NCBI GenBank assembly: GCA_951406725.2
Contig: OX597830.1
Location: forward strand, 9,982,001 to 10,046,000
Direction: 5' to 3'
DNA: 64,000 nt
DNA from: Octopus vulgaris
Taxonomy: Eukaryota
Positions within the stretch are counted from its first letter, which is position 1, and the number at the start of each line of letters is the position of its first letter. Shown here in pieces: positions 1,183-53,074 of the stretch. The position numbers and the translations under genes were made by a program. Under the pieces are notes generated by a model. That model searched no databases. It saw only the letters and a list, made by a program, of their open reading frames with translations, and was not told the DNA's origin.

Positions 1183-1500
1183 GGAAAGTTTACGAAAAAA
1201 ACAAGAAACGAAGACAGGTTTTGTACAAAACAAACAGATGTATTAGTATAACGCTCAGGAATAGAAAAAGTCTTTTACGTTTCGAGCCTACGCTCTTCTA
1301 CAGAAAGAGACACATAAAAAAACAAGGAGAGAAAAAATGTGTGTAGTGTCTAACGATCTATCATGGCGACTAGTGCCGGACAGAAGGTGTCAGACAGGAG
1401 AGGGGAAAGTAGGGGAGATAACAAGGTAAAGGTGACCCCTAACACAAAGGTGCCCCCAAAACAAATGTGCGTGTTTGTATAAGAGAATATGTACGTGCGT
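1183..1500 (-). mobile_element. Penelope-like terminal repeat fragment between (TA)n tracts, with a hammerhead-like motif at 1271-1308
   Basis: Reverse complement closely matches 10440-10615; minus strand reads TCTTT CTGTAGA A GAGC GTAG GCTC GAA ACGT A AAAGA. Confidence 0.65.
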
Positions 1501-1702
1501 GTGAAAGAGGGCTGGTGGTCTGGACGTGTATATATATAGATACATACATACACGACACACACAAATATATACACACAAACATATATATGTATAAATATAT
1601 ATACATGTCTCTGTGTATGTGCGTGTGCGTATATATATACGTACATACATTTATATATATGCATGTCTGTGTGTGTGAGGGTGCGTGTATGTATATATAT
1701 AT

Positions 1703-1900
1703 TCTTTTATTCTTTTACTTGTTTCAGTCATTTGACTGCGGCCATGCTGGAGCACTGCCTTTAGTCGAACAAATCGACCCCAGGACTTATTCTTTGTAAG
1801 CATAGTTCTTATTCTGTCGCTCCTTTTTGGCGAACCGCTAAGTTACGGGGAGGTAAACACGCCAGCGTCGGTTCTCAAGCGATGTTGGAGGGACAAACAC
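1703..1900 (-). mobile_element. SINE 3' module ending in a CR1-like LINE tail
   Basis: Reverse complement of ...CTTAGCGGTTCG...TCCAGCATGGCCGCAGTCAAATGACTGAAACAAGTAAAAGA, the same as 59880-60062. Confidence 0.8.
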
Positions 1901-2380
1901 ACACACACAAACATATACACAGATACATACATATATATATATATATTTAAATGGATGACTGAATTATCCTTTGTTTACCGTTAACCTGGAAATTTCAATA
2001 AACAGTTACCAGGGTAGCAAAATTCACGCAAGTAAGACGGATGAAGCGACCTATTCAAAGGTAGAAACTCCGGGTTAATGTGCAGTAATTTGTGTATTAT
2101 AAGTAAATAAATGGAGTTGAACGAAGATGTTATTAAAATTCTTTTACTTTCGACATATGTTTCGAAGACAACATGGTTTTATTCCAAAGGAATATACATA
2201 CATGTGACGGATTTTCAGTTTCCGTTTAACAAATCCAATCACAATGCATACATACATGCATATATATATATATATATATATATATATATATATATATATA
2301 TATATATATATATATATATATATATATGTATGTATGTATGTATATATATATATATATAATAGTGCATAAGCGATTTAAGT

Positions 2381-2824
2381 ATTTATACACGAAAGAGGTG
2401 ATCTTTGCCAAGACACTTTACATGCTAGAAAGGGCAGTTAAAGCCTAAACGACGAATAAATGGAATTTCAAAGGGGAAGAAAATAAAAAGTATTTCTGTA
2501 GTTACCATCAATTTTGCTACTGAATCTAACTGCGCTTGCGCTGTGGATTCGAAAATTGTAATGTATAAGTATGCAACACGTATGTTTTCGGTGCTATTTG
2601 CTGCATAAATATGCATTAATTTTAGCGACCTCACTGATGAAGTACGGATGGCAAATTAATCTGTTTGCACATTGATACAGAAACTCGAGTTTGAGGGTTA
2701 CTACAAAAATATTTTTTATTTTCTTTCCCTTTGAAATTCCATTTATTCGTGGTTTGGGCTTTAACTGCCCTTTCTAGCATGTAAAGTGTCTTGGCAAAGG
2801 TCACCTCTTTCGTGTTTAAATACT
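2381..2824. repeat. Imperfect ~125-bp inverted repeat enclosing a hammerhead motif
   Basis: 2381-2506 (CACGAAAGAGGTGATCTTTGCCAAGACACTTTACATGCTAGAAAGGGCAG...) is the reverse complement of 2696-2824. Confidence 0.85.
2629..2696 (+). ncRNA. Type I hammerhead ribozyme motif (canonical core)
   Basis: Stem I CCTCA/TGAGG, core CTGATGA (2634-2640), long stem II (GTA/TAC, GCAAA/TTTGC), GAA (2680-2682), palindromic stem III ACTCGAGT, cleavage triplet GUU. Confidence 0.75.
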
Positions 2825-50504: not shown

Positions 50505-50945
50505 CTCTATTTGTCTCCTCACTACGCTTGACAACCGATGTTGTTATGTTTAAGTCCCCGTAAATTAGTGGCTCTGCTAAAGAGGCCGATAGAATAAGTA
50601 TTGCGCTGAAGAAAAAAAGAAGCCCTCGGATGGATTTGTTTGAAAAAAAAACCTTCAAGGCGGTGCCCCAGCATGGTCACATGACTGAAACTATAGCAAT
50701 AATAATAATGATAATAATAATAATAATAATAATAATAATAATAATAATAATAATAATAATAATAATCCTCTCTACAATAGGCACAAGGCCTGAAATTTGG
50801 AAGGGGAAGGGCTAGTCGAATAGTTCGACCCCTGTACGCAACTGGTACTTAATTTCTTGACCCCAAAAAGATGAAAGGCAAAGTCGACTCAGAACGCAAA
50901 GACAGACGAAATGCCGTGTAAGCATTTTGCCCGGCATGCTAATGA
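50505..50945. mobile_element. SINE 3' module (+, 50505-50695) and Meta-type SINE (-, 50763-50945) facing each other across (ATA)n
   Basis: GCTTGACAACCGATG..GGCGGTGCCCCAGCATGG; ATGAAAGGCAAAGTCGAC..GCATTTTGCCCGGC. Confidence 0.75.
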
Positions 50946-51316
50946 CAGTATAAATATATGTGTATATGTATGTATGTATGTGTATATATATACATACATA
51001 TATATATGTGTGTGTATATGTGTGTGTGTGTGTGTGTGTAAATATATATATATATATATATACACATTTATATATATATATATATGTATATATACAGAGA
51101 GAGAGAGTGAGAGGGAGAGAACGGTTATGAGAGGTAATGGTGTCAATAAGGCCCGACGGTGTCAGGTGATCTTGGACAGACTCCAGGTTCGATGATTATG
51201 TGAACGAGGAATCCAACGTAGGTTATATATCAGCATGCATATATATAAAAAAAATTTACAGAATGAGATAAAAATCCAAGGCTGTGAAAGATTTTAGAAT
51301 ATTTTTAAATAGAAGG

Positions 51317-51362
51317 TCTTACAGCTGTTTCTAGGATATTTATTATATCCCTTCATCGGAGA
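51317..51362 (-). ncRNA. Type I hammerhead motif (CCGATGA core) in a Penelope-like island (51130-51495)
   Basis: TCT CCGATGA A GGGATAT AATAA ATATCCT A GAA ACAGCTGT A AGA. Confidence 0.7.
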
Positions 51363-53074
51363 TGGTGCAAGAAAATGGTTAAGCAATAGTTATTGTAGAT
51401 AAGATATGAAATAGAGAGTGAAGTGGAGGAATGAAAATAGACGTGAGATATGCAGGGATATTGTATCTGCAGTTCCATTATTTAGGCAGAATGGTATATA
51501 TATATATATATATATATATATATATATATATATATATATATATGATTCCTGTACCTTGTAAGTTCCAATAGTATTTAAAATTGGTCATTCCAAGCATTGA
51601 AAACGGTGTTATTGAATCAAGGGACTTTTAAGAAAAAAACTCGATTCAATAACGAAATCTCACACTTGGTAAGCAAGCTACTTACCACACAGACATATAT
51701 ATATATATATATATATATATATATATATATATGTATATGTGTGTGTGTGTGTGTGTGTGCGTGCGTGCGTGTGTGTATGTGTGTGTATATATATATATAT
51801 ATATATATATACATATATATACATACATATATATATATATATATATATATATGTATGTATGTATATGAATATACATATCCGCACACACACACACACACAC
51901 ACACACATATATATATATATATATATATATATATATATACACATACATATTTATATGCATATATACAATGTACCACGCAGTGGAACTGAGCCCAGAAATT
52001 TTACGTAATTTCAATGTAGTCACACGGGGGTTCTTAAGCCTTTTGCTATAGAATCTTGTTTATTTGACTCTATGGGATTCTGTCAAAGTTCCCAGTAACC
52101 GTGTAATGGATGCAAATATTTCAACATTCATCAACATATGCACACCTCTATATGGATAGATATATCGTTTGAAGCGAGCAACATCTACTGGGAGTTGTGT
52201 ATCAAGCGTTACAGAAAACCAAGAAGATTCGGTATAATTCCACCCAGTTTTCATGCAAACACTTCAGAATAAATCCAAATCGTGATATGTATTTGGATCA
52301 ATAGGATTTGTTTCAATCTGCGTGTGAGAATCTTTGGTTATGCTTTGTTTAATCCCCAAAGAACTGGTTAATCTTTATCCCAACGAAAGAATTGTGTTTA
52401 TATTTTTTTTAACTAAGCTGGTAGATATCGCAAAACTTAAATTATATTTATGGTCATTTAATTAATCAAAGTTTGAACGTTTAAATTTAAGATTTATTAA
52501 ATGATAATAACTTTCTTCACATGAAATTCATAGAATTCAAGTTGTGGCATTTATGCCGTTCCATATTTTTTCCTTGTAAGAATAGGAAACATTTACCTCA
52601 TATTGTTGAGATATCTTCTAAGGCTTGTCTCATGTCTGCTGTAGTTAATACAATTCGAAATATTACTGTTAATACTGACACTGATGTTGCTAGGATGGTT
52701 CTAGACAGCTTTGGACAAAGGGATCTGTGTCAGGAAAATATGATTAATACCATGGGATTATAGTGAAGGTATTTCTGTAAACACTTCATATACACACCTT
52801 ATGGCTGCAAGGTGTTTTTGCATATTATATATATATATATATAATGTGTGTGTGTATACACACACACACACACACACACATATATATATTATATATATAT
52901 ATATATATATATATATATATATATATATATATATATATAGGTATATATCTGAGTCAGTTTTGCAAACGTATGCAACTTTATAGAAGTTAGATCGTCTATG
53001 AATGATGATTCGGTGGAAATTAACAGTACACTGTTATGTAGGTGAACGTTAACAGTACTGTATTATGTTTTACC

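Follow-up and report, generated by a model that had tools for sequence, protein, structure and literature searches.

Hammerhead-bearing islands at (TA)n tracts in an Octopus vulgaris contig: ends of Penelope-like elements and the probable origin of their fold-backs

We analysed a 64,000-nt stretch of the Octopus vulgaris genome (assembly GCA_951406725.2, 2.8 Gb; contig OX597830.1, positions 9,982,001 to 10,046,000), hereafter the window, which has a GC content of 34% and is rich in microsatellites. Short islands beside (TA)n tracts in this window carry type I hammerhead ribozyme motifs. They are members of seven or eight repeat families dispersed throughout the genome, and most of them are truncated ends of Penelope-like elements (PLEs), not a class of mini-elements. 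Our overall reading, to which we assign a probability of about 0.7, is that these high-copy families of PLE ends were inserted at (TA)n and that their fold-backs arose by priming on two strands. Such twin priming is the probable origin of the fold-backs, being favoured by the pairing of long with short 3' ends, by private alleles common to both arms, and by arms that are frequently not nested. The islands concerned, given in window coordinates, are as follows.

1183..1540, minus strand: family A, copy 1; hammerhead-like motif at 1271-1308 with an A6U core; the 3' end adjoins (TA)n
2359..2910, unstranded: family B fold-back; short inverted arm 2359-2511(-), long tailed arm 2512-2910(+), motif 2629-2696(+)
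10440..10612, plus strand: family A, copy 2; motif 10486-10521, A6U
10657..11104, unstranded: family C fold-back; motifs 10757-10802(-) and 10880-10922(+), both without G12; tail at ~11020-11104, on the plus arm only
11119..11316, unstranded: family D fold-back; motif 11202-11258(-) with a true stem III
11119..11316, unstranded, rest of the same fold-back: plus-strand motif from 11253 with a damaged stem I; tail 11119-11189, on the minus arm only
15233..15830, unstranded: family E fold-back; 486-nt unit without an open reading frame (ORF); motifs 15465-15573(-) and 15593-15700(+); tail on the left arm only
15839..16040, minus strand: family F, 3' end of a Neptune-type PLE; motif ~15945-15980 with a decayed stem III
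25757..25880, minus strand: family G, short end of the pseudo-long terminal repeat (pLTR) of a Hydra-type PLE; motif ~25783-25822 with a decayed stem II
~25857-25880, plus strand: family G, inverted 25-nt stub of the long (tail) end
36820..37295, plus strand: island missed by the first-pass annotation of this DNA; motif 36961-37016 with a U3-A8 core
51121..51650, minus strand: family H copy with tail; motif 51317-51362; TA tract 51495-51542 is an internal expansion

Fold-backs in the window were located by masked self-BLAST, a plain inverted-repeat search being swamped by the TA tracts. This comparison upheld the fold-backs of the first-pass annotation and added three, giving 2359-2843, 10657-11019, 11190-11316, 15339-15826, 21265-21489, 26020-26363, and 57204-57284. 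The repeat families also agreed with the earlier expectation of inverted terminal copies, and showed partial tandem pLTRs, an inverted 5'-truncated copy, and an optional tail at one end, by which PLEs are recognised. Two fixed 3' ends, 65-115 nt apart, were found in families G, D, C, E, H, and B, and the longer one is the published optional tail. When head-to-head pairs of families G, D, and C were classified, 55 of 56 classifiable pairs combined a long with a short end, one combined two long ends, and none combined two short ends; another 20 pairs were left unassigned, of which 11 stemmed from a TA run in the reference and are artefacts. This stricter count was used because the E and B references contain internal repeats, which inflated the tally for six families taken together (78 long+short, 16 long+long, 3 short+short, and 17 other).

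Non-consensus alleles common to both arms were more numerous than in random arm pairs in D (15 versus 3.0), C (31 versus 1.7), G (11 versus 1.0), and E (32 versus 6.4), each value lying above the maximum of 200 random draws. Because the arms share private alleles, they were either copied from one template or homogenised afterwards. The short arm lay partly or wholly outside the long arm in 10 of the 55 long-short pairs, 7 of which had a long arm ending near or past the start site of the short arm. In the family G copy of the window there is no overlap between the arms (reference 286-402 for the short arm and 448-472 for the long arm). Where the arms are not nested, one self-copying cDNA is excluded and two priming events are possible. 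In family G, a similar hairpin follows each start site.

Two other accounts of the arms were considered and rejected. Amplification of family D as a fixed palindrome was ruled out by solo copies with upstream sequence and by at least six junction variants; a second family D query returned only 7 candidates. The family B copy in the window had suggested that inverted arms begin at the ribozyme cleavage site. Only 4 of 129 copy 5' ends lay within 2 nt of that site, with ~4 expected, in a test that included no family H rows and in which a cluster of family C starts at +6 to +13 was attributed to the alignment. This lack of clustering indicates that the copies were mostly made from uncleaved RNA.

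We propose that insertion at (TA)n would proceed by target-primed reverse transcription. The element protein would nick both strands of the self-complementary target. Of two internal start sites with fixed positions, each nicked strand would use one to prime, the template for both being the same uncleaved RNA or a sibling of it. The two cDNAs would end prematurely and be joined 5'-to-5' via short or palindromic microhomology, yielding a fold-back in which a single arm bears the tail. The hammerheads would be passengers copied from uncleaved RNA, and in fold-back copies the antisense arm is predicted to silence them. In vitro, the Poseidon PLE protein PAc introduces nicks into both strands and extends them, starting at two internal positions, ribozyme cleavage is dispensable, and dimerisation is predicted (PMC11167929); the start sites that define the tail and the AT-rich targets are common to that system and the octopus families. 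A fuller version of the proposal, on which we are evenly divided, places two hairpin-marked start sites on one RNA, one for each nicked (TA)n strand, with the two subunits of a dimer each binding one hairpin. Hydra- and Neptune-type families, and an ORF-less 486-nt unit that borrowed their machinery, would then have left fossil products in their tens of thousands.

Several observations weigh against PLE origin combined with priming on two strands. Families A and F show a single 3' end. Allele sharing was within the random range in B (28 versus 10.6, maximum 31) and absent in H (2 pairs), and where present it could have come from gene conversion between arms. In family D, the sequence after the short end failed to form the expected hairpin, and most loci were chosen by similarity ranking, not randomly. 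PMC11167929 found no difference in start site between the two strands and reports no long/short pairing rule for inverted insertions. No coding partner of B, C, D, or E was found among the fetched loci in a less than exhaustive hunt, and the evidence for a partner of family A is limited to homology to F and a match in a low-complexity untranslated region (UTR). Finally, in 38 of the 55 pairs the two arms start within 15 nt of each other, 26 of the 38 being family D loci chosen with a centre-spanning query.

This last result is also predicted by the strongest alternative, which accepts the same PLE origin and holds that one cDNA or antisense template is copied back on itself from a fold at a short palindrome, after which the endonuclease cuts back one arm so that a tail stays on one side. 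Alleles common to both arms are likewise expected, and family D has a junction hotspot at AAGCTT/AGCT. Self-priming at palindromic junctions and a tail produced by endonuclease-mediated resolution have both been published (available portions of PMC3846280 and PMC8557442, respectively). However, a short arm that reaches further 5' than the long arm, as in the 10 non-nested pairs, some of them without overlap, argues against such snap-back copying, and we consider it possible but distinctly less probable than priming on two strands.

The PLE origin put forward in the first-pass annotation was supported by the linkage of families G and F to reverse transcriptase and GIY-YIG ORFs. The family G partner was reached by walking upstream from G. 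Of 30 endonuclease loci, 26 had a G-type end at a distance of 1.5 kb or less, and in each of the eight regions that were fetched there were frames of 726-727 amino acids (aa) with a hammerhead in the pLTRs, which end at (TA)n and are arranged in tandem at one locus (L377) and inverted at another (L381). The protein carries RWK at 53, DKT at 129, CKLC (CxxC) at 682, and CRH (CxH) at 710. It gave no Pfam match; the assignment rests on these motifs and on a tblastn match (E 1.7e-7) to the 781-aa protein described below. On its sequence features, family G is the pLTR end of an intact Hydra-type PLE, "type" being used by the criteria in the available text of PMC8557442 with no claim of clade membership. 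With the endonuclease-containing (EN+) PLEs of the Hydra clade in that source it has in common a single ORF with a C-terminal endonuclease, the four motifs, a canonical hammerhead, (TA)n insertion, tandem and inverted copies, and a one-sided tail. It differs in its linker (CNFKNESSC, CxF-X5-C, not CxCX5C), its unit length (3.4 kb versus generally <3 kb), its tail (~70 nt versus 30-40), and its many near-identical copies.

A further coding family, of Neptune type and distinct from the 781-aa element described below, gave 151 matches; nine of these loci were fetched, and in 8 an F-like motif immediately precedes (TA)n. In tblastn alignments, the linker of this partner reads CSRSRCNTC (CX4CxxC, within the CX2-5CxxC pattern) before a GIY-YIG-like domain, as in Neptune-clade EN+ PLEs (PMC8557442), and family F is on this evidence the 3' end of a Neptune-type PLE. 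The C-rich ORF of the partner, its CA-rich 3' UTR of 1-3 kb, and the absence of the two-end pattern in F and A differ from that clade as described in the available text. At loci L385-L391, the low-complexity CA-rich 3' UTR (~2.9 kb) is kept between copies and has embedded GC-rich blocks. At one locus, an endonuclease remnant with 30% identity to the G protein (E 1e-9) lies upstream of an H arm, and family H is probably also a PLE end. The families besides G and F are likely truncated or non-autonomous PLE ends as well.

A Pfam profile search returned many GIY-YIG loci, mostly belonging to a young element that encodes the 781-aa protein. Both pLTRs of this element bear a U3-A8 motif, and none of the islands in the window belongs to it. 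Its RVT_1 and GIY-YIG matches, its DKG motif, its CX2-5CxxC-type linker, and its fixed 3' end on (TA)n are common to the Neptune clade (PMC8557442). An intact frame was seen at L121:2245-4590 and also at L123, L125, and L126, with many near-identical copies, an upstream 359-aa frame, and a 3' UTR holding tandem CCAAT/TGACGTC-rich repeats.

The first-pass annotation had described the islands as mini-elements, a description that fails for most of them. Besides G and F, which are 3' ends of coding PLEs, and H, which probably is one, copies of G, H, D, and A at other loci contain more upstream sequence, and family D has solo copies with natural upstream sequence. Families E and perhaps C are excepted. 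Family E is an ORF-less unit with a period of 486 nt and one motif per unit, found in tandem at one locus (L344; one unit intact, the other changed at GAAA), and it looks like the sole retrozyme-type case. Family C, whose copies have a recurrent 5' start and no sense upstream extension among those listed, is perhaps non-autonomous. With metazoan non-LTR retrozymes (PMC7229834; bioRxiv 10.64898/2026.07.22.740005, as far as their available text goes), E has in common an ORF-less, low-GC tandem unit with one type I motif. It differs in its length of 486 nt, its occurrence mostly as monomer fragments or fold-backs and not arrays, and its PLE two-end footprint.

These features of E and C, together with the monomeric three-way junction formed by family D, are what one would expect if the islands were ribozyme mini-elements without autonomous members (retrozymes), spread as small cleaved or circular RNAs and able to cut pre-mRNA. 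Nevertheless, this explanation appears unlikely, as G and F are ends of coding PLEs, copy 5' ends do not cluster at the cut site, the most abundant family carries A6U, and stem I is lost in the fold-back context. It holds at most for E, and possibly C.

The competence of the motifs was assessed from their cores and computed folds. The core of family A reads CUGU-N-GA (A6U) in 56 of 62 copies, whereas its relative, family F, is canonical in 15 of 15; to judge from the sequence, this change would weigh against function in an abundant family. Only the family D motif folded alone as a three-way junction, and its fold-back formed a computed 127-nt hairpin of -93.5 kcal/mol. Whichever strand of a head-to-head fold-back is read, the sense motif comes after the antisense arm, and equilibrium calculations on the motifs of B, C, D, and E within their native fold-backs gave stem I pairing of only 0.00-0.01. 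The ribozymes are thus predicted to be blocked in fold-backs by the antisense arm. Most motifs have a palindromic stem III, and minimal metazoan motifs show little activity as monomers, a palindromic stem III needing a dimer (PMC4209133).

The earlier suggestion that the islands could cut pre-mRNA in either orientation is therefore not supported: stem I pairing is lost in fold-backs, a palindromic stem III needs a dimer, and no host gene was identified, a Pfam scan of 11 of the 84 window ORFs having given one LINE-type reverse transcriptase and weak matches. Pre-mRNA cutting is accordingly unlikely at most of these loci, and long double-stranded RNA hairpins would be plausible provided that the region is transcribed. 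Four contig-type runs of presumed RNA covered families A, C, and D; they show neither strand nor ends nor this locus, and nothing was concluded from them. That a family with A6U reached a high copy number, and that 5' ends do not accumulate at the cut site, suggests that cleavage is dispensable for spread.

It is highly improbable that the hairpins are miniature inverted-repeat transposable elements moved into TA dinucleotides by a Tc1/mariner transposase. They are near-perfect, TA-flanked palindromes of 127-490 bp and family D has a recurrent centre, but fixed symmetric terminal inverted repeats were not found, the ends are almost always unequal, and variable centres, solo copies with natural upstream sequence, and PLE ORF linkage also contradict such an origin.

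The motifs themselves were sought with a type I descriptor (stem I - CTGANGA - stem II - GAAA - stem III - UH - stem I', at most one core mismatch). It gave 12 matches in the window as against a mean of 0.1 (maximum 1) in 30 block-wise dinucleotide shuffles, so that the motif frequency is not that of shuffled sequence. A second descriptor, admitting C3C4 and U3-A8 cores, gave 9 matches as against a mean of 0.04 in 50 shuffles. Nine of the 12 hammerheads in the first-pass annotation were recovered in place (1271-, 2629+, 10486+, 10757-, 10880+, 11202-, 15465-, 15593+, and 51317-). The remaining three (11253+, 15945-, and 25783-) were not matched by the descriptor, but on direct reading they proved to be decayed copies of families that are intact elsewhere. 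Their lesions are a stem I broken by the fold-back junction, a change of ACGT to ATGT in stem III, and a mismatched stem II. The core boxes C3-A9 and G12-A14 and the NUH site are present in type I order in the window motifs, except in family A (A6U) and in the family C copies, where G12 is lost in both arms; copies of C elsewhere in the genome retain GAAA. Two extra weak descriptor matches, 27564+ and 39921-, are probably due to chance.

The abundance of the islands was estimated from an unbiased sample of 80 evenly spaced 10-kb stretches on 20 contigs (800 kb). This sample held 27 motifs scoring at least 9, compared with 0-3 in five shuffles, at ~22 loci, or about one per 36 kb, which extrapolates to ~10^5 strict motifs in the genome. 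The window, with 8 strict loci in 64 kb, is ~4 times denser, and the figure of one locus per 7 kb given in the first-pass annotation applies only locally. BLAST loci in the sample numbered 16 for A, 13 for F, 3 for G, 2 each for C, D, and H, 1 for B, and 0 for E. A first look at the whole genome gave 2533 candidates for A, 862 for B, 767 for C, 1125 for D, 2006 for E, 1079 for G, and 4006 for H, which are lower bounds and not copy numbers. The association with (TA)n held: (TA)5 or longer lay within 300 nt downstream of 15 of 24 distinct motifs in the sample, compared with 21.5% of random places (p=1.7e-5). Not every flanking TA tract is a target, since the tract at 51495-51542 grew inside the family H element.

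Covariation of the stems is real within homologous sets. An alignment of 12 copies of a further family, K, had 93% of cells paired and 19 two-sided changes versus 7.5 in shuffles (0 of 500 shuffles); its rows were picked by the descriptor, which makes covariation of the inner pairs circular. In the family of the 36961 motif, U3-A8 and C3-G8 swap together with one stem I pair, and in family E a stem I pair is swapped in 3 copies. The first-pass annotation had drawn its support from stems that differ between families. That part of the argument is weak because the descriptor demands pairing, and the support from homologous copies stands in its place. The window motifs are real and not chance, and an origin as random matches in AT-rich repetitive DNA is the least credible explanation: an Rfam search of the window gave no hammerhead-model match at the gathering threshold (among the 150 listed of 367 E-value matches, all were miRNA-hairpin models on microsatellites or fold-backs) and isolated motifs mostly folded no better than shuffles (z < -2 in E alone among single motifs), but the excess over shuffles in both window and sample refutes it, and the compensatory changes among homologous copies speak against it as well.

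Further features of the window related to the islands are given below; half-motifs at 2151-2167, ~26177/26208, and ~57228/57260 and the type I motif at 25281-25321(-), which has no second copy among the fetched loci, had been missed earlier.

1947..2200, minus strand: family K copy, truncated inside the motif; only the GAAA-stem III-UC-stem I' half is present, at 2151-2167
21265..21489, unstranded: fold-back lying between TA tracts and belonging to another repeat family; the part present showed no type I motif
25281..25321, minus strand: additional type I motif, of uncertain status
25913..26363, unstranded: fold-back whose arms carry the 3' half of the motif only
57176..57335, unstranded: small fold-back with the 3' half of the motif only, in both arms

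At 10657-11316, 15187-16040, and 25757-26363, different families stand back to back with short TA runs between them, which suggests serial insertion into tracts beside earlier insertions. A repeat between TA-rich tracts at 41640-41990(-), with 4 loci in the 800-kb sample, contains a decayed hammerhead-like stretch near 41719-41739, and the repeat-family islands at 38613-38790 and 21265-21489 lie at TA tracts without a type I motif. The (TA)27 tract at 56225-56318 lies between an inverted GGGGCACCACC/GGTGGTGCCCC pair, that is, two SINE-like pieces face to face. Five copies of one repeat family (1-545, 13515-14070, 45850-46250, 58650-59170, and 60845-61350) are bounded by (AAT)n/(TAT)n tracts and have no type I motif match. 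Elsewhere, the window holds a 25-bp minisatellite of ~4.6 copies (12061-12186), a (TAT)n array of ~1 kb (61450-62520), and a LINE-type reverse transcriptase fragment (31136-32302(-); RVT_1, E 4e-12). The segment 19771-20661 has terminal inverted repeats of ~210 bp with 80% identity, and we take it to resemble a decayed mariner-type DNA transposon.

Much of this agrees with published accounts. The minimal type I hammerheads of PMC4209133 have in common with those described here an extra nucleotide between A9 and 10.1, a palindromic stem III, a short stem I, the U3-A8 variant, many families per genome, mostly solo motifs from truncated PLEs, and opposite-strand pairs 100-700 bp apart. The octopus set differs in its host lineage, its long stem II insertions, its high-copy A6U family, and its estimated ~10^5 strict motifs, compared with 4,000-9,000 in coelacanth and frog; for axolotl, 126,247 type I motifs are reported (PMC7229834). 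Hammerheads in pLTRs, family diversity, U3-A8 cores, solo motifs, and opposite-strand pairs (PMC4209133), as well as the (TA)n bias, inverted copies, and one-sided tail (PMC8557442), had already been published for PLEs. A repeat annotation of octopus describes active Penelope families, and the words ribozyme and hammerhead are absent from its main text as available (PMC13282606). A literature search, whose coverage left out most subscription papers, found nothing on octopus hammerhead ribozymes or on twin priming by Penelope elements. As ribozymes are a known feature of PLEs, the catalogue is mainly new annotation for this lineage.

How PLEs integrate and what their hammerheads do are still open questions in the available text of PMC8557442 and PMC11167929. 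The near-strict pairing of long and short arms, together with young intact elements, makes the twin-priming model testable in vitro. If true, the rule of two start sites would account at once for three features of these elements: inverted copies, tails on one side, and truncated stubs.

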